Positions 30,901 to 62,610 of a stretch of DNA of 64,000 nt are shown piece by piece. Position 1 is the first letter of the stretch. Every line of letters starts with the position of its first letter. The translations under genes and the position numbers were made by a program. The stretch is from a virus. The stretch is taken from positions 3,714-67,713 of the IMG/VR virus record IMGVR_UViG_3300031787_000093; one strand, 5' to 3'. The notes beneath the pieces were generated by a model that did not search any database, was not told the origin of the DNA, and saw only the letters and a list, made by a program, of their open reading frames with translations.

Positions 30901-31432
30901 CGTATGGGTCTTGAAGCAGTGATTCTAATTCTTCAGGTGTTTTTACTACAGTGCGTCCAACGACAACTTTGCCAGTTTCATCTTTTGCTGCAAGAAATAA
31001 GTTATCTGAGTCAACTCTCTTGCCCATAATTTTGTCTAATTCATCTTTTCTCTGCTCGGCTTTTTTCAAAGACACGTTTGCTTGCTGAATGGCTCTTTCA
31101 GAAGAAACTTTTAATTGCTGTTTTTGAGCTGGAGTCAACTTCTCAACTCCTGCTTTCGCACCTTCTGTAGCTACTTCCGCACTACCAAAAGTAGGTTTAG
31201 GCTTAGGTGCTGGTACCTGCATTGAGGGCGACAATGAGGGTTTAGGCTTAGGTGCTGGAATATTTCCACCAAGAGATTTTGGGGTTGGCTTTGGTGTACT
31301 TTCAACTGGAGTTACTTCATCAGTTGCCTCATCATATGTAAAACCCAATCCGTTTATTTTTGGCTCAGTGGTAGGTACACTGCTATTGCCTATTCTAGGA
31401 GTAGGTTTTGATTTGTTTTGATCTTCAGCCAT
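18950..31432 (-). CDS. 4160-aa large polyvalent / ejection (cargo) protein
   Basis: Zincin motif HELAH at 22841-22855, EIQSD-motif domain at 23729-23743, LPD23-like ELYNLYPDL segment near 26300; lies in the cargo-gene block. Confidence 0.75.
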   Translation of the reverse strand: MAEDQNKSKPTPRIGNSSVPTTEPKINGLGFTYDEATDEVTPVESTPKPTPKSLGGNIPAPKPKPSLSPSMQVPAPKPKPTFGSAEVATEGAKAGVEKLTPAQKQQLKVSSERAIQQANVSLKKAEQRKDELDKIMGKRVDSDNLFLAAKDETGKVVVGRTVVKTPEELESLLQDPYERSVFYNEQRGKLAQYFYIRDAKDFDNVLSGGLSEYEKYQYTKNGKPTIFSPVFNRQTVAANQPGYKPQFDQFAPDPVAEAYAIPQKRYEANQNYTKLQNNKLNVDAYGQPFKTQEDFYDYLIDPVNRDAYSRKYSKALKEIGITSVNDILNSVVLNETTFGAELARQKEYRTMRVAKGESLVENGIIGKSGTVYDENENSTALSNISELDLGRVLYEYDLGNNIGIDIPNAKDRTFNDLNRDGLVDMLTKAGLSEDEIDEVFVKYKMAYERSLGEKEYESRRKSLGYTTDAFGNKLSRFDLNFEARAKGELSAEEQKIAKLYDQIDAIYAIAEKPKTATEKQYYGKFKLTAEQTKQVTDLRAQIEQLKGQAGFFGLNNLSPQEFFDSDGNRLEGEDKDQAQVVYSNTLNAEKKTDRAILKEKRNVLYVQLDGLEKKLKEYKSTRFNKNVVLPEGYDPEELDERYNAARDKEMPYLAKVGSMITSFGGGGDIVFTDQMKANFIYERNLKDKIIEKKAQIRAANQIIYTNTDLTKVDGKGVGSNFVNKFTKDVTESFTGGTYLTPSEEVIAASDFLQQSGQYVNPEVVNSIETIYEDKALGEGILNTMGVVLQMGLMQKPMTGGMTKLFTSQTALTARAYMANRYGRTGIATFNLIEKAATTYGKQALLFEAVGQDGSMGAAEELGNQVYDKVTGTLGLGRFVPANLIGKLMTVFGRTISGAAGSFTEESFANVWAEFKSNGFDIREAVENAYGKTEDERLLNLRMTAFTCIVFSAGNLSNLGILFKTRQAFSDYLQNTYGNDVSEFDSEILTILDSTIKNTRGAKGDTPDEPEFATATATAVENGTNETKSAVEDQMVMSTGPVESDQNTSTNTFTSSGVGNEGVQVERRTGNMGEEFYVSSENGVVDNKVVYRYNMETGQLEAQGLTSTTDEFVPLNDKSRQFVEDQSKKYGIVSKEKVENIAIKNLDSRRASQEKIENGQENQDNTVLYQSKNKTSKRKEKRMSQAEASARARYQPSWNESAQQRVGLFTGIASEVSSEDDAIKEAVSEMSKGFGVKMKINLVSFFKDGAAVITDVARKKFAHVSDYMAPLFRDFDNQFFNTQTDEQTGQTTRQRQQDNTTDKVREAVARNTLFEQVFGKLVAEGKMTKEDAIDNFIINLMQNSTNKVKEIFGNDKAGIESFQKLRKDFNNFVAVKYTGANTFSTTNAFVRNTPMSNTTSKNRAADLKKQAAEVAQLNEKRRKTANVLSNTQKQGAFIEDKQVDAAMFLDGDLNAEDFLQNIGVETKANETQDQVQDKAKKQAEKLIDYAKYTEGKRLVAENDATREKYRKQLNKKFKDDWGLKASFKTRFRWKKMREQRTGSADMALRIFENKATRMGITLQEFMDTRIEMLKRTEQQFQDWLKMSPNLVPLFQNAANLNPEEIYPNVNKAKELKEKNYPLEKITLMTGVVLNEAGVPVAFDPKFVADVQTTNEVYKGIFNSFKKIKAQPKFTFKFFGKRTDTPELTSVIDIRKLFTLAGNKELYNLYPDLGLVSIRTVVDANLPAVSFRPNYMYDSGGDAKKGQKPGEIVINLQKYEAEAVSNLLQNYNKLFTKNILPQLQQALRQAVQHIEGELPESTIDFATPTAVRTKLLELRGKKLIDENTEKLVNDIVDFYIDKNLFQFTSYKSVFTDISRVLFSANTEKGVKKIVELISNTYDLSVSDSQTLESIYNNYMNSYGEGDANKSKSLHNAFLVSKSLAGLNNEELIVADVTELKFIKAKASKPIQKQLETAKTNYELVLEQQKLIFESYADILKQFDLSDDNHAVDVVAGVIESEIMYGSGIGSRSLETALQSFRFVAESITEIKRALNDNEVVPSSLISDLEFEFTSSKFAEAIQFLYSLDSDTKITLDDGSELQVFTSEQEFLDFVQVDQGIMIDDPVAIDSGVSEMIPKFIKAGKLKTNLKTEVTELENITDAEARESFYDMFPGIQNYMGGIYDPYKSPSDFTKSELQKELVDSGLIKQETFDKIYADYEANPEKFTGSVASNFIEPTAPLTVEEQQQLSEFLKIQELVEDSFSTSFYSGAAYATSKVLAQSKGKITVESLKSLLIKNGAKEVELNWLGFDDFISQYDTTVPASDLKTWSENIPQLFSYDRDSLNQSRTVDEVVYLGNDNFIERPDSIGDFVRTTAKKLDTTFTGKKVSFVIKRSDGTSRFVDLTQIADETLDLYESYIGKEKYPQFKETFEKLKKYQGVQITAENIEEIKTLLKLHFEASDEIIRQERVEGFEQFKSTIGQPLGQSYKEHLLGFPFSSNRLLQSYDEKILEKLEQLTKEKDFAGNYGTLDKLQNEITQLVKERNDLAKNYFDESHFSAIPNEVAMHMRTEIVVNENGERMLHVIEIQSDKAQNFRTLTLAEIKKQYPVESEFEQRIIQVQSTKENKNITREELKEKLKQLEDQDPTANDFNLSFNNYFLKQEAIKDAKNTFKKTSPIIETEQFVSIGIKHALKIASDYGVKKIVFSNGASIGAAVAGNQTGDKTSGLNKLYNETIPNKAKKLAKAYGFTTGTTKLNLTSFGRVDEVAKPDEFEFTLDPTEYPSYVDTLGNSVVNTGKLLTRLDVDEEFLNYVALETTGESFVPGNEFFTLELTDETFEAVAGGMALFQQDMHGAHGATVKTDQGKFIIFALTNPNITTAMHELAHVWEDSLTATEKKAFLKEVGHDKWTRATSEAFARHFEKYLADGKAPTSSLANLFANFKKWFLQVYGGIIGTPIEMKVSEPMRKLYDSMLGETQVKGVQMKKTPNVIEDIGNFIKDIKANPQFEEITDDELYTSLIRSGFEPQDVQDYFSLKQRANIEKQQQRGGIFKEEADAMENEAEAMRVVRDKKELLDAIDNIDPNDYPPILEALFTTVDNGDVPLAKAIMDLIAAKQNGGDPKMIHEQYSKILKAGTGIGRMLQLFKQLSKETYLSGAEAMFRRNEKQGLNIPQGAKTKIRDLANELDKLKDLYKESRNLAETDPYGTSKIDPSKTNLQYHLDLYEQLQGAQKRYIDARAPYEGDNSLTDMYRSFIKGGLMTPGSMSVNALSNITKYLTDLFVSPVRSGISLISNKLGITDSQYTKTGWRDFGAGNRYGIPMGLKKAAKILRDGTVTQAYQTPDAYVQGFNFYKSLQKFVGLKIDQYRIKAGMLDMTTEELAEKHGFAITNEGKISSKQQAIALLQGTFGFVPDVVFRVMGATDAVFRDFAYFSSVSEQFKFTAEHERYKKAIDAAKSSDERNRLKKEYEAIRKAYIIVNSDYKNSAAQEEAMRYVYNNDNAVSDVIARVQNITRETDDGFSIPAKISRIAGTSIIPFSRIPSNYAVELLEFFIPEYALVKIGIIGGARAVRRSQRAAKGELSAADSFNQRRADARDADRILARALIGTGIQFIALQAVKAGCVSGAPDDEGEDKKQSQSFSYSLERPYSINLTLLKDRFMSMVDSEYKSKRPNNLWNKEKDLIISYKSLGLFGAALYFQFKENKLALDKQNKFVNRGALEEAADEFGLNLFGNMNSAGKYIIDQTFVRGILSVAKAVTDEDENRLPTFFAEIVGTMASGLVPNSLSWIDKWRRDYVVDYDFRESPPIKMFGIKVEDPQATLFWMKLGTKLAERWPWKSIPGHYVDLPFVEIEMDKFPVKVDNFGKDVAITPVGSSNFGKWMYNTFDVLQVSRIVAGYNIPDWEALVYLAVKKGDAWDALPAAIPRNIETPFGAYKFAPEEYNNLLRYNAMLRRQLVQEYLIDTGEYKKYIEINSEMNYDPATKKPIAGLKNPNLLLGYEQLGKILKDIYHVADAMTNIANYTFMDFERRKLYNEDREKYIELIAREALSPMGQFQKEVYGNQEHGGNNLVQTEKQTNPLLNINYEMIKDPQRFKKYSKGAIKLFLQFQGDPQTAIQTAKNQQVETLKDDSTIMLGPDLDIVPLDQEKKSTPVAEAIKKQQQKAKPKNSTIDLGDGLILVPLE

Positions 31433-41127: not shown

Positions 41128-41727
41128 TTAATCGAATATATCTTTTTGCTTCTTAAGACTATCTACTTTTTCTTTGAAGTATTCTATCATTTCAACCATT
41201 TCTTCAGGTAAAAATTTATGGACTATCTTAGATTTTTGAACTATTAAATCTGCAATCCCCTGCCCATATTTTTTATCGATTCGTTTACCAAACTCGTATT
41301 GCATGCCACTCATGCCAACGTTACACGCATAACACTGGGGAGCACAATTCAATGGATCAAATCTGGTTGACATGAAACGCCTAGATTGAAAGTGACCATT
41401 CTGAATAGCTTTGTAATGATGAACTCCATCGCAGGTAAAACACTTCACCATGCCTTGTTTGTTCGCACCTTCTAATCTAATAAACAATGAGAATATAGCG
41501 TCTAGTTTTTTAGTCAGTTGCGAAATACTCATGCGTTTTTTCTCACGCTTGACAGCTCTGCGTTCTTTTGCTTTTGCTTCAGTTGCTTTCTTAACACAAG
41601 TGGAACAAAGCTTCTTAGCTTTATTTGCATGTGGTCGTTTTCTATTGCAGCCGGAGCAAATAGTTTCCTTTACAGGTTTCTCTGAAACCCCCTTCACTGG
41701 AATTTTCTTTTCTTTTTTCTGGATCAT
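41128..41727 (-). CDS. ninG: NinG/Rap-like HNH-type nuclease
   Basis: LDAIFSLFIR...CFTC...GHFQSRRFMSTRFDPLNCAPQCYACN, plus an extra N-terminal CSGC...CSTC. Confidence 0.85.
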   Translation of the reverse strand: MIQKKEKKIPVKGVSEKPVKETICSGCNRKRPHANKAKKLCSTCVKKATEAKAKERRAVKREKKRMSISQLTKKLDAIFSLFIRLEGANKQGMVKCFTCDGVHHYKAIQNGHFQSRRFMSTRFDPLNCAPQCYACNVGMSGMQYEFGKRIDKKYGQGIADLIVQKSKIVHKFLPEEMVEMIEYFKEKVDSLKKQKDIFD

Positions 41728-48970: not shown

Positions 48971-49007
48971 TATCTTTGTTTACTTCGTTTCTACGGATAC
49001 AAAAATA
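48971..49007. promoter_or_regulatory. divergent pair of Bacteroidota-type -7 promoter elements
   Basis: TATCTTTG on + (48971-48978) and TATTTTTG on - (49000-49007). Confidence 0.55.
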
Positions 49008-51527: not shown

Positions 51528-52091
51528 ATGAAAAATAAATTTTCACCGCACCGAATGAACACCTACCATAGAGAACTGGTTCAAAAGATCAGTACCTATT
51601 TCTCTAGTCAGATAAGTAAGTCTCCTTGGAGAACTGATTACATTGTACTGCGAACCTCCCAGCAGGCAACGAATGACTACAACGATACCATTTTCATCCC
51701 CAATTTCAACGATGAAGATGATTTCGACTTCTATTCAGCTTACAAGTGCAATGCATTTGCGAGTGATTCTGCTAAAATTATCACTGGATGTTACCAGTAC
51801 AGGTTAGCTAAACGTTTTGGTTGTATCTATGGACAGCAAATAGAACCTATTTACTACTACGATACGATCAATATGAACGTGAAGGATGATTACGAGGATA
51901 AACATCTCATTGGAATCAATTTATTGGCCCATCCACTGCATGTAATGATCCCATTGTATACCCCAATCTCAAATGTATCCAAAGGATCTATCATACTACA
52001 CCCAAGTGCACACCAATTACTGAAGAACAACTTCAATGAACAACCTCCAGCATTCAAACTTTTCGTAATTGACATCAATTTACTGCTCTAA
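51528..52091 (+). CDS. hypothetical protein
   Basis: 187-aa ORF. Confidence 0.65.
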   Translation: MKNKFSPHRMNTYHRELVQKISTYFSSQISKSPWRTDYIVLRTSQQATNDYNDTIFIPNFNDEDDFDFYSAYKCNAFASDSAKIITGCYQYRLAKRFGCIYGQQIEPIYYYDTINMNVKDDYEDKHLIGINLLAHPLHVMIPLYTPISNVSKGSIILHPSAHQLLKNNFNEQPPAFKLFVIDINLLL

Positions 52092-52176
52092 ATGCGTTTT
52101 GTTTAACTTTTGAAAGTCTCAACCCGGGAAATCGGGAGACAAAAGTTCAACAAACTGACAGTATCCTGACAAAAGT

Positions 52177-52209
52177 ACCCCCCTGTAGTAACATATAGGG
52201 GGGGTTTTT
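52177..52209 (+). terminator. intrinsic terminator ending the middle operon
   Basis: C-run/G-run hairpin followed by T5. Confidence 0.7.
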
Positions 52210-52784
52210 ATGATCCCCCCGGGGTAAAATACTGTTTGTGTGAGTGGTGGAGGTTTACGCTACAAAAATCTACAGCAAACCGCCCAAAAAAACACCCCCC
52301 GACTTCATGCACACACCCATACGCAAAACCGCACGCAAAGCCTTGTGCATGGTTTCGCACGCAAAATAAAAACGGAACTGACCTTCGGTCAAGCCGGGCT
52401 TTATCTAGTTGTAACAAACAAATGTTTGTGTCGGCTAGGGCTGATTTGGCTGGCTATAAAGGATTTAAACCTTCGGTTTACTTGGCTCTATAGAAAAGTT
52501 TGGCTGCTTCTCTGTCAATCAAACACTCTGTGTTTGGCTTTAAAGGTCACCGAAATTCAGTGCCAAGAAATTTTAACCGAAGGTTACCCTTACTATTTAA
52601 CAGAGATTCAAACTCTTTAGAGTTTGGTAGGAGGTTAAAGGAAGTTGGTTGAAGCCTCGCATGCACACGCATATGTGCGGTTTGGCTCGCAGTTCTCAGT
52701 GCGAAACAGCACATTGGCTTGGATGGGCTTGTTTGTGCCTCTATGCTTATACGCTATGCAAGACTTAACGAAGTTAAAGTGATT

Positions 52785-52825
52785 TGTGGATAACTTATCT
52801 TACCTATGGTAAAGGATGTGAATAA
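52785..52825 (-). promoter_or_regulatory. two DnaA boxes
   Basis: TGTGGATAA (52785-52793) and TGTGAATAA (52817-52825), both matching TTWTNCACA on the minus strand. Confidence 0.55.
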
Positions 52826-52860
52826 GTGGTTCGGAGTCCCAACCCTCCAAACCGACTAAT

Positions 52861-52941
52861 TACTTTGGGTTTTTATAGTGTTACTACTAACCCTTGTAAA
52901 GGGTGTAGTTAGTAGTAACACTTATATAAAAACACAAAGTA
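52861..52941. repeat. long intergenic inverted repeat H1
   Basis: Core arms GTGTTACTACTAAC / GTTAGTAGTAACAC, extending imperfectly to TACTTTG / CAAAGTA. Confidence 0.85.
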
Positions 52942-52946
52942 AAATT

Positions 52947-53882
52947 ATGAAAAACACCAAAAACACCACAGCAATGCAAAGCATTTCAAGTCAGATTACC
53001 GAAACAATGAAACAGAGTTTCATTGAATCAAGGAAAGTTTACACTAAGGATGAAATCCTTAGCCATCTCAAAGACTTTTCTTCTAGAAAAGTTAAAAAGG
53101 CTTGGTTAACCAAGAGAATAAACGACAGAGTCGTTTACCTTAACTTCTTGAAGTTAGCATCAACCGAAGGTTGGAAGCACTTTTATGGTCAGCCAATTCA
53201 TCAGAAGTTCGTAGAACTTCAGATGTCAACTCTTCAATCTATGATTGAAGTTAGGTTGAAACTTAGCCCTGAATCAGAGCGTGAGTCTCTTCTAGAGACT
53301 TTCCTGCATGGATTAACAAATCCTCAACCAAAGGTTGCTTCTAAGGTTGCTCCGAAGCCCCAACCGAAGGTTGTTGAGGCAAAAGTTCAACCGAAGGTTG
53401 TCAAGGCTAAATCTCAACCGAAGGTTGTTGAACAACCAAAGGTTGTAAAGGCTAAACCCCAACCAAAGGTTGCTGACAATCAATCTTCGATTGATACCGA
53501 AATCTTAACCAAGATTGTAAACAATCTTTCAGAGCAGGCTTCACAGTTAACGAAGTTAACTGAACTTTGTCTTGCCAATAGCAAGGCTATTGCAGAACTT
53601 CAAAACCAACCGAAGGTTGTTGAACAACCAAAGGTTGTTGAGAAAGCCAAAAAACAACCAAAGGTTGTAACTACTCAACCAAAGGTTGAGGCAGTAAAAG
53701 TTGTCACTCCAAGTCAACCAAAGGTTGCCAAGAAACAACCAAAGGTTGAAAGCAGCCAAATCAGTCTCTTGGAGGCGTTCATGAAGACTTTGTCTCCTAA
53801 GCGTGAAAAGAAATCTACGATTTCTCACAAAGATGCTTTTGAACTTGGCTCTTGGAAAAAGCACATCATGGAGGTTAAATAA
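52947..53882 (+). CDS. first early protein, with QPKV repeats
   Basis: ATG 52947 just after H1; 12 QPKV units each encoded by CAACCRAAGGTTG; terminator follows. Confidence 0.7.
   Translation: MKNTKNTTAMQSISSQITETMKQSFIESRKVYTKDEILSHLKDFSSRKVKKAWLTKRINDRVVYLNFLKLASTEGWKHFYGQPIHQKFVELQMSTLQSMIEVRLKLSPESERESLLETFLHGLTNPQPKVASKVAPKPQPKVVEAKVQPKVVKAKSQPKVVEQPKVVKAKPQPKVADNQSSIDTEILTKIVNNLSEQASQLTKLTELCLANSKAIAELQNQPKVVEQPKVVEKAKKQPKVVTTQPKVEAVKVVTPSQPKVAKKQPKVESSQISLLEAFMKTLSPKREKKSTISHKDAFELGSWKKHIMEVK
53161..53748. repeat. array of 13 palindromes CAACC-RAA-GGTTG
   Basis: Copies at 53161, 53325, 53361, 53388, 53415, 53433, 53460, 53607, 53625, 53655, 53676, 53715, 53736. Confidence 0.9.
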
Positions 53883-53895
53883 CCTCCATGTTTTT
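53867..53895 (+). terminator. intrinsic terminator
   Basis: CATGGAGGTTA / TAACCTCCATG followed by T5. Confidence 0.75.
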
Positions 53896-53940
53896 ACAAA
53901 AAATTAACTAATCAAAGAAAAAATCTAATCAAAAAAGACT

Positions 53941-54288
53941 ATGTTATTCTCAAAGTACAGCACACTTTTCACAACGGCTTTCGTAGAATTTAACCAAAGG
54001 TTAATTAATGCTAGAAGTAACTTCATGGATTATGAAATCCTCACTGATGAAGAAATCTTTAGAGATTTCGTCATGGATATCTTTGCTCTTCGCAAAATCT
54101 ATGGTAAAATCTATGAAGAAGACATGCATACTGAAATCCTACAACCAAAGGTTGAAATCATCTACGATTTGCTACAAAACAACATCGAAGATGTTAGAAA
54201 CGGCTCTTCATTAGTCGTTAGACTAATTGAAGAAATGTTCTACTATTGCAAGTCAATCACCGAAACAATTGAAAGCCCTCTTAATTGA
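53941..54288 (+). CDS. early hypothetical protein
   Basis: ORF preceded by TAATCAAAGAAAAA. Confidence 0.65.
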   Translation: MLFSKYSTLFTTAFVEFNQRLINARSNFMDYEILTDEEIFRDFVMDIFALRKIYGKIYEEDMHTEILQPKVEIIYDLLQNNIEDVRNGSSLVVRLIEEMFYYCKSITETIESPLN

Positions 54289-54297
54289 GGGCTTTTT
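54272..54297 (+). terminator. intrinsic terminator
   Basis: AAAGCCCTC-N6-GAGGGCTTTTT. Confidence 0.75.
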
Positions 54298-54335
54298 ATC
54301 TAACCATTAAATCACTCAAAGAAAAAATAAATCTA

Positions 54336-54623
54336 ATGAAAAACACCGAAATTCCACTCTACTATGTAGAAACCTACATTCACGGCACTGAAACAGAAGT
54401 CTTAGACTTTGTCTTAGAATTAAATATCTTGGCAAAAGGAGAGTACTTTCAGTACGAACTAACCGATCCTGTTCCATCGTTAGATGGAGAGGAAATTGAC
54501 CCTAATCAACCTGTTTATTTAGTGCATGGAATAGTCACAGAAAAAGATATCAAAGACTTGAATTTGCACTTAGACTTTCTAATCAGCGAACATCCAATAT
54601 CTAATCTAATCAAAGAAAAATAA
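54336..54623 (+). CDS. acidic early hypothetical protein
   Basis: ATG follows TCAAAGAAAAAATAAATCTA. Confidence 0.65.
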   Translation: MKNTEIPLYYVETYIHGTETEVLDFVLELNILAKGEYFQYELTDPVPSLDGEEIDPNQPVYLVHGIVTEKDIKDLNLHLDFLISEHPISNLIKEK

Positions 54624-54628
54624 ATCTA

Positions 54629-54853
54629 ATGAAAAATATGTCTGCAAAGTATGTTTACCTCGTTTTCCAAGTAATGCCGTTTGACGATTACCACCATGAG
54701 TTTGAAGGTGCCTTCACTAGTGAAGAGTTGGCAGAAAATTACAAGCGTTATCTAATTGATTTAGAAACAAAAAAGCACCCCGATTATGACTATCCTTTTT
54801 GGCAAGACTTTTATGTTTCCAAAGTTATGCTTAACCGAACCGAATCTTATTAA
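54629..54853 (+). CDS. early hypothetical protein
   Basis: VYLV...EGAFTSEELAE motif. Confidence 0.7.
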   Translation: MKNMSAKYVYLVFQVMPFDDYHHEFEGAFTSEELAENYKRYLIDLETKKHPDYDYPFWQDFYVSKVMLNRTESY

Positions 54854-54866
54854 TCAAAGAAAAATC

Positions 54867-55037
54867 ATGAATAATATCAAAGACAAAGACTTTTTAGCAA
54901 GTTTAATTTTCGCAATCCTCTTTTTTGGCTGTGCCATTTTCTGTGCTTATCTAAAAGATATTGCATCGTTAGCAGTTTCATCAACACTTAGTGTTTCTTT
55001 CCTAATCGTATCACTAGAACAATCAAAGAATAAGTAA
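54867..55037 (+). CDS. small two-TM early protein
   Basis: Hydrophobic; start follows the conserved upstream motif. Confidence 0.6.
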   Translation: MNNIKDKDFLASLIFAILFFGCAIFCAYLKDIASLAVSSTLSVSFLIVSLEQSKNK

Positions 55038-55048
55038 AAATAAATCTA

Positions 55049-55333
55049 ATGAAAAACAAACCAACACCACAAAAGTACTACAGCCTTATGGCTGAAATGA
55101 AAGCCACAGTTTATGCAACTATGGTAAATGAACACAATCAAAAGATTGAATTCCTAGAACATCCAATCCATGGTGACTGCTTCCCTATCATCGTAGCATT
55201 TCCAGAGGAAAAAGTAGCATTTTCTTCTCATTTCTATGATTTAGATGACATGATGAATGCAGAGCATTCAGACTATCGTCCTTTCCTTGTTGATGGTAAA
55301 TTGTTAATGGGTTTTGAAGTACAAGCAATCTAA
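55049..55333 (+). CDS. early hypothetical protein
   Basis: ORF with the conserved upstream motif. Confidence 0.7.
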   Translation: MKNKPTPQKYYSLMAEMKATVYATMVNEHNQKIEFLEHPIHGDCFPIIVAFPEEKVAFSSHFYDLDDMMNAEHSDYRPFLVDGKLLMGFEVQAI

Positions 55334-55336
55334 GTT

Positions 55337-55600
55337 ATGAGTATACAAGCACAAGTTGACAACATGATGAGAAACTTTGAAAGAATCGATCGTCCACAAC
55401 CAAAGGTTGAATTTATTCCTCAATTAGAAGACTATTGTCTTATGATTGACGGCAAATCCGACGGCTATGTTTATCATTATACGACTATAGTCGATATGAT
55501 AAATGACGGCTTCAGTTGGAATTCTAATGAAAAGTTCAAGAAGATGACTCGCATGACTGCCGAAGAGTTGCAATACTTCCTTGACAACCGAAAATTCTAA
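55337..55600 (+). CDS. early hypothetical protein
   Basis: ORF; carries one CAACCAAAGGTTG at 55397. Confidence 0.65.
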   Translation: MSIQAQVDNMMRNFERIDRPQPKVEFIPQLEDYCLMIDGKSDGYVYHYTTIVDMINDGFSWNSNEKFKKMTRMTAEELQYFLDNRKF

Positions 55601-55608
55601 TGCTCTTT

Positions 55609-55673
55609 ACTCTCTCTTCTTTTGTATATACCCTGAGTTCTTACGAAGGGTTATACAAAAGATTAGAGAGAGT
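55609..55673. repeat. long intergenic inverted repeat H2
   Basis: ACTCTCTCT-TCTTTTGTATA-TACCCT ... AGGGT-TATACAAAAGA-TT-AGAGAGAGT. Confidence 0.85.
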
Positions 55674-55733
55674 TAATAAGACTCCGAAACCCCAAAACAA
55701 ACCACAAAACAATCACATAATCACAGAAAAATC

Positions 55734-56036
55734 ATGACTAAAAAAGTAAAAACCTCCAACCAAATCCTAGTTGATGGAATCAAAAATTTGCATCCAATGT
55801 TTCAAGGCTATTTAATCGATAGATTAGAGAAAGACATCAAAGAATTAAGTGAGCAGTTGCCCGAATGGGCAGCAAGCCAAGAGGCAAAAAACTCCATGTT
55901 TCACCCTAACTTCTTTGTTCAGTACATTAATTCTATGAATCAAATCTTTGATGAGATGGACATCTCAGCAAACAAACGACTCTACAACGGCAACAAAGAG
56001 TTTACTCCAAGACCAAAATTATCTTATTTTGAATAA
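55734..56036 (+). CDS. early hypothetical protein
   Basis: ORF. Confidence 0.7.
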   Translation: MTKKVKTSNQILVDGIKNLHPMFQGYLIDRLEKDIKELSEQLPEWAASQEAKNSMFHPNFFVQYINSMNQIFDEMDISANKRLYNGNKEFTPRPKLSYFE

Positions 56037-56049
56037 TCAAAGAAAAACT

Positions 56050-56292
56050 ATGATAGTATTTATTGAAACCAAGTTTACACTTGAAATCCAACCTTGTCAC
56101 TACATTACTTCCGATTTTGTAGGCATTACAACAAAATTGTATGCAATCAGTCTCAAAGACCAAAGATCAAAGAAAGAACTGGCTCATCGACTTGTTCACC
56201 AAGATGAAATCTTGAATCATGTTGAAGAAATGCTACCAACTCATTACAACCAAATCAAAAATCAAATCAAATCAGAATTTAATCTAATCTAA
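56050..56292 (+). CDS. early hypothetical protein
   Basis: ATG follows TAATCAAAGAAAAACT. Confidence 0.65.
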   Translation: MIVFIETKFTLEIQPCHYITSDFVGITTKLYAISLKDQRSKKELAHRLVHQDEILNHVEEMLPTHYNQIKNQIKSEFNLI

Positions 56293-56294
56293 TC

Positions 56295-56858
56295 ATGAAA
56301 GACCAATCAATTACCTACGGTAACATCACTGTTGACATCATTTATGATGACAGCCCAGAAAATCCAAGAATGGATACCAACTTAACTCAGTTTGTTATGT
56401 TCCATAAACTTTTCAAACTGCCAAATGAAACAGGTATTTCAAACTACAATGAGTTTTTTAATTCTTGGAGTGAAATGCAACTTGACTTGCAGTCAAAATT
56501 CAAGCATGTGATTTCGGTTTATATGCTTCATCATGGAGATATATATTTTTCTTTGAGTGACTTCATGGACAAATGGGATTCGGGTCAAGTTGGATTCATT
56601 GTATCCAATGATGAATCAATAGAAGACTTCCGAAAAGTTGCTCAATCAGAACTTAATACCTATGGTTATTATGCTAGAGGTGAATGCTATGGTTTCACAG
56701 TCAATGAATCAGAGATAGAAGATACTGAGTCCGTTTGGAGTTTCTACGGCTCTGACCATCATGAAAGTGGACTCATAGAGTCATTGTATAGTGTTCTTAA
56801 GCATAGTTTTGCTCAGAACCCCAAAGCCATTGAAGAAATCGTAAAACAATTAAATTAA
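56295..56858 (+). CDS. conserved early hypothetical protein
   Basis: SPENPR...WDSGQVGFI...GECYGF pattern, which I recall from phage and plasmid proteins. Confidence 0.7.
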   Translation: MKDQSITYGNITVDIIYDDSPENPRMDTNLTQFVMFHKLFKLPNETGISNYNEFFNSWSEMQLDLQSKFKHVISVYMLHHGDIYFSLSDFMDKWDSGQVGFIVSNDESIEDFRKVAQSELNTYGYYARGECYGFTVNESEIEDTESVWSFYGSDHHESGLIESLYSVLKHSFAQNPKAIEEIVKQLN

Positions 56859-56865
56859 TCTAATC

Positions 56866-57189
56866 ATGAGAATAATCACAGAAAAATCAGTCAAAGCATT
56901 CATGAATGCTGAACGATTCAAAGAATCAAACACCGAAGTTGAAGTACTGCCAAATGTTACAATCTTACGATTGTTTGGAAATGCAATTGCTTATCGTTAC
57001 AACGACCCTCTCAGAACTTTGTCAGTAACAACCGCAGGTTGGAACACTGCAACAACTAGAGAACGATTGAACGGCTTACCTTTTGTAAAAGTATCAACAA
57101 GAAAAGGTCAACTATATATCAATGACTATCCATGGGACGGCTCATTGGTAGATGTTTTACCTTACGAAACTTATTCAACTAAAAAATAA
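56866..57189 (+). CDS. early hypothetical protein
   Basis: LFGNAIA...GWNTATTRERLN motif. Confidence 0.7.
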   Translation: MRIITEKSVKAFMNAERFKESNTEVEVLPNVTILRLFGNAIAYRYNDPLRTLSVTTAGWNTATTRERLNGLPFVKVSTRKGQLYINDYPWDGSLVDVLPYETYSTKK

Positions 57190-57216
57190 TCAAAGAAAAA
57201 ATAAATCACAGAAATT

Positions 57217-57576
57217 ATGGGACGCTATTATTCAGGAGACATTCAAGGTAAATTTTGGTTCGGTTTACAATCATCAGATTGTGCTGACCGTTTTGGTAAA
57301 ATGGGAGTTACTCCAAATTACTTGGAGTACTATTATGAACTTGATGATTTACCTCAAGTTGAAGCAGAAATCAAAGCTATCGAAGATAGTTTAGGTAAAC
57401 TCAAAGAAAAAATAGATAAATTCTTTGAGGTCAACAACGGCTACACTGAAGAAAGATTGGCTCAAAATGGTATATCAAGAGAATCTTTGTCTGAGTACGC
57501 TGACTTGCTCTTGGGTTATCAGATTCGAGATGCAATCATGGAAAACGGAAGTTGTCAATTTACCGCTGATTTCTAA
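57217..57576 (+). CDS. early hypothetical protein
   Basis: MGRYYSGDIQGKFWFGLQSS N-terminus. Confidence 0.75.
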   Translation: MGRYYSGDIQGKFWFGLQSSDCADRFGKMGVTPNYLEYYYELDDLPQVEAEIKAIEDSLGKLKEKIDKFFEVNNGYTEERLAQNGISRESLSEYADLLLGYQIRDAIMENGSCQFTADF

Positions 57577-57592
57577 CCAAAAACCAACCAAC

Positions 57593-57656
57593 TTAATATA
57601 TCCCTTTTATGTATACCCTGATTTTATGAAGGGTATACATAAAAGGGATATGTTAA
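57593..57656. repeat. long intergenic inverted repeat H3
   Basis: Perfect 22-bp stem ATATCCCTTTTATGTATACCCT with a 10-nt loop; extends to 27 bp with one G-T pair. Confidence 0.9.
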
Positions 57657-57697
57657 AACAATCAAAAATCAACCAACAAAACAACCAACAAAACATC

Positions 57698-58441
57698 ATG
57701 CAAAATCAAGTTGCTTACACCATTCCAAAATCTATTTTGTCTGACGGCAAATCAAACTCAAAGACAAAGAAAAACGTCCGTGTTACCAAGATTTTATATC
57801 TTGCTCCCGAACAACAAAACGAACTTGGCGTTAATCTTTGTCCTTTTTCATCCGAAGGATGTCGCAAGTCTTGTCTATTTACTGCCGGCATGGGTGTCTA
57901 TGCTAATGTAAAAGCCGCAAGACTTAACCGAACTCACTACTATCTACAAGATAGGTTTAGTTTCTTGCTTCAGACTGCTGACGAAATTGTTCGTACTGCA
58001 AAACATCTCAAGAAATTAAATGAGCCTTTGGCTATCCGTCTCAATGGCACTTCGGATATCAAGTTAGTTGAGCAGTTAGTTACTGCTTACGGAGACCACA
58101 TCCCTCAAAACGTAGTTTTCTACGACTACACAAAGATTCCGAAAAAAGCAGGTAACTACACTCTTAAGAGTGGTCATCGTTATCAAGTTGCATTCAGTTT
58201 ATCGGAAGATAATTGGGAAAACTTTGAATGGCTTGTTGGTAACAAGTTAGCCGTTGGTGCTGCTGTTTTCGCTGTCAAGAAAGATCAACCTTTGCCAGAG
58301 TTTTACAAAGGTATGCAAGTAGTTGACGGTGACTCTCGAGACGATTTGATGCTTGATGTACCTTTAGGTACAATCTTGGGTCTCAGAGCAAAAGGCAAAG
58401 CCTTAAAAGATACATCAGGTTTCGTAATACACAACTTTTAA
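57698..58441 (+). CDS. Gp88-like protein with three-Cys motif (possible Fe-S)
   Basis: LYLAP...NLCPFSSEGCRKSCL...RLNGTSD...FYDYTK; likely start ATG 57698, downstream of H3. Confidence 0.65.
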   Translation: MQNQVAYTIPKSILSDGKSNSKTKKNVRVTKILYLAPEQQNELGVNLCPFSSEGCRKSCLFTAGMGVYANVKAARLNRTHYYLQDRFSFLLQTADEIVRTAKHLKKLNEPLAIRLNGTSDIKLVEQLVTAYGDHIPQNVVFYDYTKIPKKAGNYTLKSGHRYQVAFSLSEDNWENFEWLVGNKLAVGAAVFAVKKDQPLPEFYKGMQVVDGDSRDDLMLDVPLGTILGLRAKGKALKDTSGFVIHNF

Positions 58442-58453
58442 TCATAGAAAAAT

Positions 58454-58648
58454 ATGTTACTTCAAAAAGAATTAAGCGAAGAAACTCTAGAGAATGCTAG
58501 AGCATGGTTTGAATCACTCGGCTTTTCAACCGACATCTCCTATGGTACTTTGTACCTTGAACTTAACTGCTGTTCAGTAGAACTATCTCAATCGGAGATT
58601 GAATGCAGAGCAGAACAATGGATTAACTCACTCAATAGACAAGACTAA
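58454..58648 (+). CDS. early hypothetical protein
   Basis: ORF with the conserved upstream motif. Confidence 0.6.
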   Translation: MLLQKELSEETLENARAWFESLGFSTDISYGTLYLELNCCSVELSQSEIECRAEQWINSLNRQD

Positions 58649-58652
58649 AATC

Positions 58653-58955
58653 ATGATAACCAAAACAAAAGCACTCGAAATCATTGACTCAGGCAAGTTC
58701 TTTTCTTGCAAGTTTGTAAAACAAAACGGAGAGGTTAGAACTCTCCGTGGAAGAACTGGTGTACGAAAGTACATAGATAAAAACGGCAACTGCCAAACCA
58801 TCAAAGGAGTTGGCATGAAGTACAAGCCAAAAGACATGGGCTATCGTGTAGTATTGGATCTTGACAAGAGAGAATACCGCATGATAAACACCATCACAAT
58901 CGTAGAATTTAACAAACAACCAATCGGAAACTTTAACCTATCAAAATCAATCTAA
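58653..58955 (+). CDS. SH3/WYL-like beta-barrel protein (DUF2693-like)
   Basis: FVKQNGEVRTL...VLDLDKREYRMIN. Confidence 0.5.
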   Translation: MITKTKALEIIDSGKFFSCKFVKQNGEVRTLRGRTGVRKYIDKNGNCQTIKGVGMKYKPKDMGYRVVLDLDKREYRMINTITIVEFNKQPIGNFNLSKSI

Positions 58956-58958
58956 GAC

Positions 58959-59210
58959 ATGAAAGCACCTACAGGACACTACCGCAAACTAATCAGCAAT
59001 CCTCACATCAGAATTGCCTTTACTCACACCCCAATTTATGGCTGTACCAAAGTTAATAGTGATTCAGTCATAGAAGAACTTAAACAAAGTAACGATGAGT
59101 ATGCTCAGTATTACATCGATGGTCTCGAAAGTGGTAACATGGTTACCATTGTAGAACAATCAGTCGAACGCTACTATCGCAACAACGGAGAACTTTTCTT
59201 TACAACTTAA
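58959..59210 (+). CDS. early hypothetical protein
   Basis: ORF. Confidence 0.6.
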   Translation: MKAPTGHYRKLISNPHIRIAFTHTPIYGCTKVNSDSVIEELKQSNDEYAQYYIDGLESGNMVTIVEQSVERYYRNNGELFFTT

Positions 59211-59213
59211 TCT

Positions 59214-59546
59214 ATGGTAAAAGTATATTTTCAATCAGAGATTGGTAGTCACTCAGAGTTAGTGGCTACCTTTAGAAACGAGGAACTTTACATGGCGGCT
59301 TTGCCCTCATTAGAAAAGATGGCTGCAGAACAACGCTGCTTTGTTACTGAGGAGATGTCTAAACATCATATCGACGAAGCAGTTGCATCGGAAGCCCAAG
59401 CCGTAGGCTTTAATTGTCTTCATTGGTCAATCTTAGATTTTGACAAAGACGAAAAAGCCATGAACAAATTCTTTTTAGCCAACGACAACATCATTATTCA
59501 ATTCATCAACGACTTAATCGAACAACAAAATCATGAAACTATATAG
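59214..59546 (+). CDS. early hypothetical protein
   Basis: ORF. Confidence 0.65.
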   Translation: MVKVYFQSEIGSHSELVATFRNEELYMAALPSLEKMAAEQRCFVTEEMSKHHIDEAVASEAQAVGFNCLHWSILDFDKDEKAMNKFFLANDNIIIQFINDLIEQQNHETI

Positions 59547-60108
59547 ATTCAACGAACAAATCAACCATCAGGTTGGTATTATTTTCTCTAGACTTTTTTA
59601 TAGTCTTAATACAAAACTCAAAGAAGCAGGTTTAAAAGACCATGAAATCGAATCCTTTACTATCTTCGATAGAGTTCGAGAAGATATTGAAACAGAATTA
59701 GTAAAACTAAGTCTTACTACTCCGTACTACAAGGATGCTTTCAGTCACAACGACTCGTTACAATTCGATCCTACGGAAATCAACATAGTCAGAGATAAAA
59801 TCTATGACAAGTATAAGTTCATGTGTAGCCATACAACAGAGTTCTTTGCAAGGCAGTGTTCCTTTACAGGAGAGTTGATGAATGAAGGTTGGTTTACTGC
59901 AAATGACCTTTATATCTCAACTGAAGAAGAATTAATCTCATGGCTAAGACGAGAGGTTCAAGAGCCAGAGATTGACAACGAGCTAACTGATGACGAACTC
60001 AGAGAAAAATACTATGAGAATGGTATATTCTATTACACTGAGTGGAATCATTGTACTGATATTATGTTTGCTAAATTTGAGGGAAACGCCTACCGAATCA
60101 ACGACTAA
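59533..60108 (+). CDS. early hypothetical protein
   Basis: ARQCSFTGELMNEGW...YYTEW motif. Confidence 0.7.
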   Translation: MKLYRFNEQINHQVGIIFSRLFYSLNTKLKEAGLKDHEIESFTIFDRVREDIETELVKLSLTTPYYKDAFSHNDSLQFDPTEINIVRDKIYDKYKFMCSHTTEFFARQCSFTGELMNEGWFTANDLYISTEEELISWLRREVQEPEIDNELTDDELREKYYENGIFYYTEWNHCTDIMFAKFEGNAYRIND

Positions 60109-60119
60109 AATCAACTACA

Positions 60120-60186
60120 TTATCTATGTCATCTTTGAGTACACCCCATTTTATATGGGGGGTATACTCAAAGAGACAATAGATAA
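60120..60186. repeat. long intergenic inverted repeat H4
   Basis: TTATCTAT-GTC-TCTTTGAGTA-CACCCC ... GGGGTA-TACTCAAAGA-GAC-ATAGATAA with single-base bulges. Confidence 0.85.
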
Positions 60187-60200
60187 AACCAACAAAAATC

Positions 60201-60425
60201 ATGGACAAAATTCAACAACTCGAACACCGACTTGCTATGGTCTTGGACGATATCAAGGTCATCAGACAACACATCTACAAACAAGACATCGCAGAATCTT
60301 TTGAAAAGCCTACACCTATGGCTGATGAATGTTGGACTCATTTCAACAACATCGAGATTGCTTGCGACTTAAACTCTGAAGAGAGTTTATCTTGGACATT
60401 GTTTAACCAATCAAAGAATAAATAA
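60201..60425 (+). CDS. early hypothetical protein
   Basis: ORF directly after H4. Confidence 0.65.
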   Translation: MDKIQQLEHRLAMVLDDIKVIRQHIYKQDIAESFEKPTPMADECWTHFNNIEIACDLNSEESLSWTLFNQSKNK

Positions 60426-60427
60426 TC

Positions 60428-60760
60428 ATGACTCAATTCGATTTAGAATCACTCGACCGCCACTACTTTTGGGTTGAACGCCCCAAAGCAGTTATTCAAG
60501 AACTATCAGACAACTTTGACAAAGTAGAAGATGTCACCTACCTTAACGATGAGGTACCTTCGGTACTAATCAATGGACTAGTTAAAATGTACTTGCCCAA
60601 TTCAATTCGTCAGCATGAGATGGAGACCAACCAGTACGCTGTTCTCATAGATGAACAGGATGGATTCGCTGATGCTGATATCTATCTATTCGATAGATTT
60701 GACCATGCAATAGATAAAATCACAGAACTTTTAGAAACCTTAGAACATGAGACTAACTAA
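60428..60760 (+). CDS. acidic early hypothetical protein
   Basis: ORF. Confidence 0.65.
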   Translation: MTQFDLESLDRHYFWVERPKAVIQELSDNFDKVEDVTYLNDEVPSVLINGLVKMYLPNSIRQHEMETNQYAVLIDEQDGFADADIYLFDRFDHAIDKITELLETLEHETN

Positions 60761-61169
60761 TTTATCCGCACTTCTTAATGACGGCAACGTCTATCAATCT
60801 GAGACCGAAGCAAAACTTCGTTTTAAGTATCTGCTTCAGCAGTTAACTACCATCTATGATTTACTTGAAGAAGCAGGTGGTTCTGAAGAGCAGTATGCTC
60901 TTGGAGATGTCATGAATTTATTCAGCAATCTTATTACTGGTAGTAAAAATTTACCTAATTTAGACTCTATGAAAATAGACTATGAACAATACTTATTCAG
61001 CCAACTTTGGGCTGAGAAAGATGACAGCTTTGCTGAGTTGCCATATGACGAACAATGGGATTTGATCCCCGACAAGTGGAGAGAATTCGAGAAGAGTGCT
61101 TTCAACGTGGATACAATGCCATTGTACGACTGCATCTTAGCGTTTTTTGACTCAGAAGAACTTCTATGA
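60747..61169 (+). CDS. acidic early hypothetical protein
   Basis: ORF. Confidence 0.65.
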   Translation: MRLTNLSALLNDGNVYQSETEAKLRFKYLLQQLTTIYDLLEEAGGSEEQYALGDVMNLFSNLITGSKNLPNLDSMKIDYEQYLFSQLWAEKDDSFAELPYDEQWDLIPDKWREFEKSAFNVDTMPLYDCILAFFDSEELL

Positions 61170-61543
61170 AAAGATATAAAATATACCGCAATCTTCACAA
61201 GAACTGCTTCAGTGTACTGAAGTACATACCTGAGAAGAAAGGCTATCGGTTACATGAACATTTAACTGATGCATATCTTTATGACGTTGAAGCCAAAGTA
61301 TCTGAGGCTGGTCGTAAAAAGGTTGTCAAAGAAAAACAAAAGAATGTGCACGCATTTTTACTTTGCTCAAAATACACAAAAATGGATTGCCGAATTTATG
61401 GTCATACTTATTTTCCTGAAATCTATTACAACCCATACAAGTATGAAACATTTGTTGTGAATTTTGAACCTTTCGTCTCAGGTAAAAAGGTTATGCTAAC
61501 CTTGTCCGCTAATACACCGAAAGCATTCCTAATGGAAAAATAA
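61166..61543 (+). CDS. conserved phage hypothetical protein
   Basis: YRNLHK...VSEAGR...KNVHAF...YNPY motif set. Confidence 0.7.
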   Translation: MKRYKIYRNLHKNCFSVLKYIPEKKGYRLHEHLTDAYLYDVEAKVSEAGRKKVVKEKQKNVHAFLLCSKYTKMDCRIYGHTYFPEIYYNPYKYETFVVNFEPFVSGKKVMLTLSANTPKAFLMEK

Positions 61544-61620
61544 ATTTGGAAATTACACAAACATCACTTTACTTCGCAAAACCAATTAACAATTATTACA
61601 CAATCTAATCAAAGAAAAAC

Positions 61621-62584: not shown

Positions 62585-62610
62585 CCCCCCTCCTTCGGGA
62601 GGGGGTTTTT
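62585..62610 (+). terminator. intrinsic terminator
   Basis: CCCCCTCC-TTCG-GGAGGGGG-T5 with a UUCG tetraloop. Confidence 0.9.

Follow-up and report, generated by a model that had tools for sequence, protein, structure and literature searches.

A clade-specific family of long intergenic hairpins, candidate RNA punctuation signals in an uncultured crAss-related phage

The DNA analyzed here (the window) is a stretch of 64,000 nucleotides, bases 3714-67713 of the 67,713-bp virus record IMGVR_UViG_3300031787_000093, and its subject is a set of four long hairpins, H1 to H4, lying between small genes on the plus strand. The record is 99% complete and no terminal repeats were found in it. A crAss-type muzzle protein is encoded (PF25731, E 1.7e-54), and genes for a tail ring protein, portal, primase-helicase and DNA polymerase were also recognized; the match to a crAss capsid was weak. 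The phage is uncultured and crAss-related. The structural genes occupy the minus strand from about 5 to 48 kb. A plus strand block begins at 49 kb, reaches the end of the record and carries on at its start, with the hairpins in its ORFan-rich middle. Of 24 small proteins scanned from the hairpin block seven matched a PHROG family, every one of unknown function, and none had a known function. The block was labeled early in a first reading of the sequence (the original prediction), which is an assumption about the timing of its expression. TAnnTTTG boxes of the Bacteroidota type lie 3-5 nt 5' of the ATG at ten minus strand late genes (Table 1). These boxes point to a Bacteroidota host and to late messages that are leaderless or nearly so.

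The original prediction placed four long inverted repeats in this block, and an inverted-repeat search found them where predicted. Their starts are 2.7, 2.0 and 2.5 kb apart, matching the predicted spacing of 2-2.7 kb, and all four are intergenic, as claimed, once the real gene starts are used (ATG at 52947, 55734, 57698 and 60201). H1 ends 4 nt before the first of these. H2 starts 5 nt past the stop at 55600 and ends 57 nt ahead of its ATG, H3 starts 16 nt past the stop at 57576 and ends 41 nt ahead, and H4 starts 11 nt past the stop at 60108 and ends 14 nt ahead. The genes between the hairpins overlap or sit at most 12 nt apart, with four to seven genes per interval, so that the hairpins fill the only sizeable gaps, the breaks between translationally packed gene groups. 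An ATG within the loop was rejected as an alternative start, being in frame in H3 of the window only.

Table 1. Hairpins, terminators, leader and promoter-type boxes in the window (positions are those of the window)
Feature	Position	Strand	Description and source
-7 box TATCTTTG, Bacteroidota-type	48971-48978	+	51 nt 5' of the first plus strand gene; conserved in G000-G003
H0, a different conserved hairpin (TTTGTTTAACTTTTG...CAAAAGTTCAACAAA)	52098-52154	+	directly 3' of gene 51528-52091; palindrome scan
U-tract terminator closing the first plus strand operon	52178-52203	+	terminator scan; also looks usable on the minus strand
Conserved non-coding stretch between terminator and H1	52204-52859	+	several small conserved hairpins; candidate leader or non-coding RNA
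H1	52860-52942	+	83 nt, ~34-35 pairs; nested arms 52860-52877/52925-52942 and 52877-52891/52908-52922
U-tract terminator after the first gene of the block	53867-53890	+	terminator scan; contrast class to H1-H4
Hairpin then TTTTTAT, after the second gene	54272-54295	+	scan listed the minus strand only; plus strand reads GGGCTTTTTAT after the stem
H2	55606-55676	+	71 nt; arms 55606-55633/55649-55676
H3	57593-57656	+	64 nt; arms 57593-57619/57630-57656 (27 nt, 96%)
H4	60120-60186	+	67 nt; arms 60120-60147/60159-60186
Box TAAATTTG	61541-61548	+	gap before DUF932 gene 61621; past H4, the first boundary between gene groups with a host-type box
U-tract terminator after the DUF932 gene	62586-62605	+	terminator scan; contrast class to H1-H4
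Late-gene TAnnTTTG boxes	8037, 9055, 9653, 13770, 18930, 31444, 34390, 41113, 45901, 48204	-	box scan

The stems have about 23-35 pairs (at least two helical turns) and the loops 4-14 nt. H1 carries bulges of 3 and 4 nt, both on the 3' arm, and its apex reads ACCCT-TGTA-AAGGGT. The H2 stem stands on the base ACTCTCTCT/AGAGAGAGT; TT bulges from its 3' arm and one nucleotide from its 5' arm, and its apex reads ACCCT-GAGTTCTTACGA-AGGGT. The H3 stem of 27 pairs has one T.G as its sole blemish and encloses the loop GATTTTATGA. In H4 a single nucleotide bulges from the 5' arm, and beneath the apex CCCC-ATTTTATAT-GGGG lies an internal loop that is asymmetric. Bulges are present in three of the four (H1, H2 and H4), as the original prediction stated, and the shared apical core that it described for H2 to H4 is GTATACCCT...AGGGTATAC in H3 with variants in H2 and H4, H1 having the looser ACCCT..AGGGT. 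Bulges on the 3' side were seen in H1 and in H3 of the relative L005 as well. The unpaired center of the hairpins is AT-rich and clamped by C/G pairs. Read by eye and without counting, all 17 hairpins of the window and its relatives have a pyrimidine-rich 5' arm and a purine- and A-rich 3' arm. Both flanks are A/C-rich and nearly G-free and should therefore stay unpaired. The predicted lack of a U-tract was also borne out: a T-run follows none of the four hairpins, the terminator scan listed none of them and the plus strand 3' of each stem is A-rich.

The RNA folds of H1 to H4 have energies of -37.6, -35.3, -39.6 and -33.5 kcal/mol, respectively, with z-scores of -7.67, -7.45, -10.28 and -7.61. 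For each hairpin none of 200 shuffles folded as well. DNA folds of the two strands are alike and lie between -20 and -28 kcal/mol. When segments of 90 nt were folded along the whole 67,713-bp genome H1 to H4 were among the most stable, and they made up four of the five hits kept by a genome-wide palindrome scan. An Rfam search with the hairpins returned only sub-threshold look-alikes of microRNA precursors, which are generic long hairpins.

Protein-guided searches located the same hairpins in three other near-complete genomes (five in G001, four in G002 and three in G003), and hairpins were also present in metagenome contigs L227-L240. H1 has orthologues in L003, L005, L228, L231 and G003. In the window, L003 and L005 it stops 4 nt short of the ATG, which the G003-type hairpin reaches. 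Long hairpins of such kind were found by palindrome scan nowhere else in the genomes of the window and G001-G003. They were absent from 58 more distant partial loci (678 kb; GP88 protein at most 58% identical) and from four distant whole genomes (G004, G005, G007 and G010), so the family is private to one small clade. Megablast of positions 52000-61000 and tblastn of the portal protein against a phage collection gave no match, and the first 30 kb of phage phi14:2 held a few unrelated hairpins and no repeated family. A loose apex pattern, ACCCTGAN{5,10}GAAGGGT, matched at least 120 stretches in viral contigs; among the loci folded nearly all were chance matches. Long stems among these folded loci were seen only in L046 (~4001), L109 (~301) and L063 (~22), which are unrelated viral contigs with an ACCCTGA...GAAGGGT apex. 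The L046 hairpin is followed by an A/C-rich leader and then an ATG. These three hairpins may be distant members of the family or may reflect convergence.

The way in which the hairpins vary separates fixed from free parts. H2 was compared at seven loci, which gave five distinct sequences. Its base, the TT bulge of the 3' arm, the 1-nt bulge of the 5' arm and the apex given above were invariant, and the middle stem (10-12 nt) was swapped for other sequences, always in both arms and with length changes included. In H3 TTTTATGTATAC is present in both arms of the window and TTTTAGTATAC in both arms of L228, the same 1-nt deletion having occurred in both arms. H3 of L227 is chimeric, with one arm of the TTTTATGTATAC kind and the other of the TTTTAGTATAC kind. 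Among four H3 sequences six of the 27 pairs were changed on both sides, a number reached by none of 500 shuffles, and 85.7% of the cells were paired compared to 41-58% with slid partners. A variant strain carries 57613 A>G together with its partner change 57636 T>C. The variant data are assembled Logan contigs from four runs and are probably from one strain.

Base motifs track position, H2 resembling hairpin b of G003 and H5 of L003 resembling hairpin c of G003. The apex tracks the genome: all three G003-type hairpins have the loop GAAC(G/A)TAGTGA, and the apex of the window type is CCCT-GA..TT..GA-AGGG or CCCC..GGGG. Loops were never inverted in any relative or variant, which makes the elements directional. 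An invertible loop was rejected on the same observation and on the 10-nt spacer, which is too short. A MAFFT alignment of all 17 hairpins was out of structural register and RNAalifold recovered only four pairs from it. Read from the individual comparisons, the pattern of conservation is one of constrained base, bulges and apical loop as against a middle stem free except for pairing.

The surroundings of the hairpins were examined for terminators, leaders and promoters (Table 1). The original prediction had contrasted the hairpins with ordinary U-tract terminators nearby at 53867, 54272 and 62585, and all three were seen, the second by reading the plus strand sequence. A conserved non-coding stretch of ~850 nt (52091-52947) is alignable in four genomes and contains H0, a U-tract terminator and several small conserved hairpins. 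H0 heads this stretch 5' of H1 and has counterparts in G001, G003, L228, L234 and L238. One of the small leader hairpins shows compensatory changes, reading ACAAACA-AAT-GTTTGT in G000 and G003 versus CCAACA-TTT-GTTGG in G001 and G002. Abundant early non-coding transcripts are described for phi14:2 (bioRxiv 10.1101/2020.03.07.982082), and by analogy the stretch may be a non-coding RNA of that sort.

Only two plus strand TAnnTTTG boxes lie in gaps between gene groups, at 48971 and 61541. Upstream of the hairpins the box at 48971 is the sole conserved promoter of host type. Six boxes were found in 52.1-61.5 kb, all intragenic, compared to about five expected by chance by our arithmetic, and none is conserved at a boundary. 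Those at 60063 and 60072, inside the gene 5' of H4, are not conserved in L003 or L005. No TAnnTTTG box was found in or beside H1 to H3, and over the 9.4 kb holding the hairpins no gene-group boundary had a conserved box of host type. If the hairpin block has a promoter, its place must be in 52204-52859 or further upstream. The scarcity of boxes at plus strand boundaries fits long read-through transcripts, and from it one long polycistronic plus strand transcript is inferred. In the corresponding interval hairpin-free relatives have zero or one box, numbers too low to support a replacement of promoters by hairpins.

The hairpins are a real, conserved and non-random family of directional elements private to the clade, and their structures, placement, conservation, fixed and variable parts and missing U-tracts are observed features. 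The best reading of them is as RNA punctuation of a long plus strand message over the ORFan-rich block, which is held tentatively, as possible rather than probable. The placement behind stop codons, the 3'-side bulges, the purine- and A-rich 3' arms, the open flanks and the abutment of H1 on an ATG fit RNA punctuation best. The extra genes of relatives also speak for it: they lie 3' of the hairpin, after H2 in L005 and after H4 in L003 and L004, so that the hairpin stays with the upstream gene. Each hairpin would fold in RNA right behind the last stop of a packed gene group and would shield the 3' end of that segment. It would be the target of a double-strand-specific or hairpin-guided endonuclease, either host RNase III or an enzyme that recognizes the conserved apex, bulges and base. 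Were the 3' arm cut level with its conserved bulge or beneath it, the hairpin would remain attached to the upstream message. The purine- and A-rich 3' arm would be freed together with the A/C-rich spacer, the two serving the next group as an unstructured leader. At H1 the cut would unmask a start codon 4 nt from a stem of ~34 pairs. We infer the action in RNA, the cleavage, the place of the cut and the single long transcript from this anatomy and layout.

Several points weigh against RNA punctuation. In the 17 hairpins G.U pairs numbered 8 of 460 on the plus strand and 4 of 451 on the minus strand, and the mean stability gap between strands was ~1.3 kcal/mol. Ten T7 RNase III sites were folded in the same way, at coordinates attributed to Dunn and Studier 1983. 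They had 41 of 216 G.U pairs in the sense strand versus 13 of 190 in the antisense strand, and the sense strand was ~7.6 kcal/mol more stable. The signature of T7-like selection on the RNA strand, by which we mean the property measured in these T7 folds and not a textbook definition, was lacking in the 17 hairpins (G.U share of 1.7% compared to 19% at the T7 sites folded). Taken alone, the near absence of G.U pairs and the equal strands argue for constraint at the DNA level. The window's group and G003 have different apices, which a host RNase III would not require. No promoter for the supposed long transcript was seen in the interval from the 52178 terminator to H1. Relatives that share the genome plan do without hairpins of this sort. 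RNase III processing, the first of three options in the original prediction, stands in part: position and anatomy fit it best and the T7 RNA-strand signature is missing.

The weight of the G.U comparison depends on how the stems are maintained. Parallel insertions and deletions in both arms are hard to reach by independent mutation and selection and look like templated copying from arm to arm. Such correction, by quasipalindrome template switching in DNA replication, would keep the stems Watson-Crick on both strands; a template-switch mechanism is described for quasipalindromes (PMC7202029). Because templated copying keeps any long palindrome perfect regardless of function, the G.U test loses much of its force. 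Copying should also erase bulges, yet the bulges persist, which argues that bulges, base and apex are under selection. The set appears to be a clear natural case of long palindromes kept perfect by arm-to-arm copying with specific imperfections selected. It serves as a warning that compensatory changes or missing G.U pairs are not simple evidence for RNA or for DNA function.

A different explanation, unlikely in our estimate, is that the hairpins are start signals read in DNA. The palindrome would extrude as a cruciform from supercoiled or entering DNA, a phage factor or polymerase would read the apical loop and bulges, and transcription would begin at or just past the 3' base of the stem, as at N4 early promoters. 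Watson-Crick pairing on both strands, which fold equally well as DNA, permits extrusion, and the AT-rich unpaired center clamped by C/G pairs is in keeping with it. Hairpins of one genome resemble each other in apex and loop, and those of the window's group differ in both from those of G003, as expected if a trans factor co-evolved with its sites. No conserved TAnnTTTG box stands at a gene-group boundary in the 9.4 kb although the late genes have one, and a start at H1, 4 nt from its ATG, would give a near-leaderless message like the late ones. The N4 virion RNA polymerase (vRNAP) is described as needing a supercoil-extruded hairpin (PMC13492108). In phi14:2 a virion polymerase with a DFDxD motif is described as transcribing the early genes and preferring single-stranded DNA, and the same account reports no common motif upstream of the early transcripts (bioRxiv 10.1101/2020.03.07.982082).

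The DNA start signals would serve a transcription activity of an unrecognized kind, either virion-borne, for example in a 4160-aa protein, or a product of the first operon, and this part too is given a low probability. The 4160-aa open reading frame (ORF; 18950-31432, minus strand) holds the cargo position of the virion module. Its family consists of 27 unannotated metagenomic proteins with 38-80% identity, and an HExxH motif lies near residue 2860 of the protein. No DxDxD or T7-type motif was found in it or in any ORF of at least 150 aa, calcium-binding-like repeats aside. It had no sequence match in Pfam, PHROG or PDB, a profile search against PDB was also negative and hhalign of the family against the phi14:2 polymerase gave a probability of 0.3%. 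Atlas leads point weakly to polyvalent-protein domains (LPD38, LPD22). A virion or phage RNA polymerase was not detected by these searches, and a very divergent enzyme in the 4160-aa protein is conceivable. Relatives of the giant protein extend to 38-57% identity, yet four distant whole genomes, which may or may not encode it, are hairpin-free. The stems are 4-6 times longer than N4 stems. The gene groups that follow U-tract terminators (53941 and 54336) have neither hairpin nor box, so read-through would be needed in any case. The cruciform promoter option of the original prediction survives as far as pairing on both strands, the group-specific apex and the missing boundary boxes go and falls short for want of a detected RNA polymerase. 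If it were true an N4-like solution would have arisen independently among the crAss-related phages of a small freshwater and wastewater clade, specificity would reside in the apex by which the window's group and G003 differ and the hairpins would be the first sequence-defined candidate promoters for the 'motif-less' crAss-type transcription.

Gene content around the hairpins bears on a third explanation, which is improbable. A selfish or recombinogenic palindrome would have reached four or five leaders in the clade's ancestor. It would now persist, kept perfect by template switching, and would serve at most as a hot spot for gene shuffling in the manner of promoter early stem-loop (PeSL) elements, MITEs or attC sites. 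The family is private to one small clade, and its copies sit inside otherwise ordinary A/C-rich leaders and share base and apex motifs (H2 resembles L003 H5, and L003 H5 resembles L007 b and c). L227 H3, the chimera between two lineages, is also what such an element might leave. In L005 a gene has moved to just after H2, and insertions of ~330 nt (L003) and ~550 nt (L004) lie just after H4. Homology breaks at 60102 and the variant has breakpoints at 55717/55718 and 60105. Against a mobile palindrome, most joints between strains fall at gene borders without a hairpin, about three of the 15 listed (of 17 in all) being within 65 nt of one. Template switching should erase bulges and the same bulges are found in every lineage examined. 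All copies have one orientation with loops never inverted, and no target-site duplications were seen by eye. Of the changes in gene content, some adjoin H2 and H4 and most have their breakpoints at ordinary gene borders.

Small genes of the block were also seen to come and go elsewhere. Environmental contigs of related strains lack or replace whole small genes at 54311-55336, 55717-56043, 56283-56855 and 58933-59244, and in one contig the genes 54616-54859 and 54854-55035 are in swapped order. By its appearance in these contigs the small-gene turnover is typically cassette-like.

A 229-aa serine recombinase (Resolvase domain with a partial Recombinase domain) is encoded at genome positions 2250-2939, upstream of the first base of the window and ~6.7 kb downstream of H4 if the record ends are joined. 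It counts in favor of a selfish palindrome by its presence and against it by its distribution, since six of 11 related records carry it, the hairpin-free G004 and G010 included. A link between the hairpins and the serine recombinase was rejected on that ground. No match to a tyrosine integrase was found among the proteins scanned, a scan that covered part of the ORFs. The genome carrying the serine recombinase is apparently of the lytic type. A 100-nt hairpin (-42 kcal/mol) lies at genome positions 2016-2115 (L211), inside a 109-aa ORF just 5' of the recombinase gene.

Quite improbable is the view that the hairpins are terminators or insulators without a U-tract, in which RNA polymerase would be stopped or attenuated by the stem, unaided or helped by a factor (Rho, for instance) acting on the C-rich, G-poor flanks, and no cleavage would occur. 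The position directly after stop codons, the very stable stems and the C/A-rich, G-poor flanks would suit this, and PeSL stem-loops with no U-tract in their description are reported to terminate strongly (PMC2839356). The same block has ordinary U-tract terminators, however, and a second kind would need a reason. An efficient stop would leave the downstream groups without a visible promoter, and the conserved loop, the bulges and the position of H1 before the first gene instead of after one are left unexplained. The last option of the original prediction, attC-like recombination sites, is disfavored by the lack of a tyrosine integrase match among the proteins scanned, the four to seven genes between sites and the location of most breakpoints elsewhere.

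Three further observations were made on neighboring genes. The product of the first gene after H1 (52947-53882) is 311 aa long, contains the lysine-rich repeat QPKV(V/A) about 17 times and may be a nucleic-acid-coating protein. The many short inverted repeats that repeat and terminator scans found at 53325-53748 arise because the QPKV(V/A) codons, CAACCNAAGGTTGTT, are themselves palindromic. A leader motif, (A)TCAAAGAAAAA, occurs at 53905-53918, 54307-54320, 57190-57203 and 61601-61613, 3-20 nt 5' of plus strand start codons, and recurs in relatives and in one variant contig. Perhaps it is an element of translation initiation, or a signal of another kind. A NinG/Rap-like protein of a structure-specific nuclease family (PF05766, E 2.6e-11) is encoded on the minus strand at 41128-41727, inside the 5-48 kb structural block, and would be relevant if the palindromes ever extrude as cruciforms.

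Relatives of crAssphage are abundant and the control of their first genes is poorly understood, phi14:2 being the one case studied. The clade described here gives a small and sharply defined set of signals in which the parts that must stay and those that must only pair can be read from natural variation. This makes a clean experiment possible for RNA processing and DNA-hairpin recognition alike.

The hairpins were compared to four known systems. They resemble integron attC sites in being imperfect palindromes with a variable center that keeps its pairing and with extrahelical bases. The attC core is GTTRRRY, which the ends of the hairpins do not fit, and the hairpins enclose four to seven genes instead of one cassette and are kept in place among relatives. 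No IntI-type tyrosine recombinase was matched among the proteins scanned, only the serine recombinase being found. PeSL cassettes of the T4-type phages RB49 and phi1 are described as a sigma70-type promoter joined to a stem-loop, with ~50 per genome, and their stem-loops, for which no U-tract is described, as strong terminators (PMC2839356). They share with the hairpins a repeated intergenic placement between stop and next start in an ORFan-rich, plastic region, and some gene gains and losses adjoin the elements in both. The hairpins differ in lacking a host-type box, in numbering three to five per genome and in having no clear excess of breakpoints and no mini-circles shown.

The early promoters of N4 (P1-P3) have a stem of 5-7 bp and a loop of 3 nt. 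Like them the hairpins are a handful lying a few kb apart ahead of small-gene groups, host-type boxes are absent nearby and recognition would be by shape and a few loop bases. They differ in their stems of about 23-35 pairs and loops of 4-14 nt, in that no position of the -11G type is definable and in that no virion RNA polymerase was detected. For N4 vRNAP the supercoil-extruded hairpin is described as a requirement and a specific loop purine, -11G, as having a role (PMC13492108).

The closest likeness in layout is to the RNase III sites of T7 (R0.3, R0.5, R1, R1.1 and R1.3). The T7 record has a promoter-bearing leader before gene 0.3, and folds at the site positions attributed to Dunn and Studier 1983 placed hairpins in the gaps before 0.3, 0.5, 1, 1.1 and 1.3. 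In both phages the elements are intergenic, lack a U-tract and split a small-gene block of several kb into segments, and the first of them stands just before the first gene, behind a non-coding leader. In both the copies share sequence, have asymmetric bulges on the 3' side and consist of about two helix turns broken by bulges (H1, H2, H4 and orthologues; H3 of the window has none). The hairpins differ in being longer and near-perfectly Watson-Crick on both strands, in having one apex in the window's group and another in G003, and in a leader in which no promoters were seen. By these comparisons the hairpin family belongs with the known phage punctuation signals and is not a new category.

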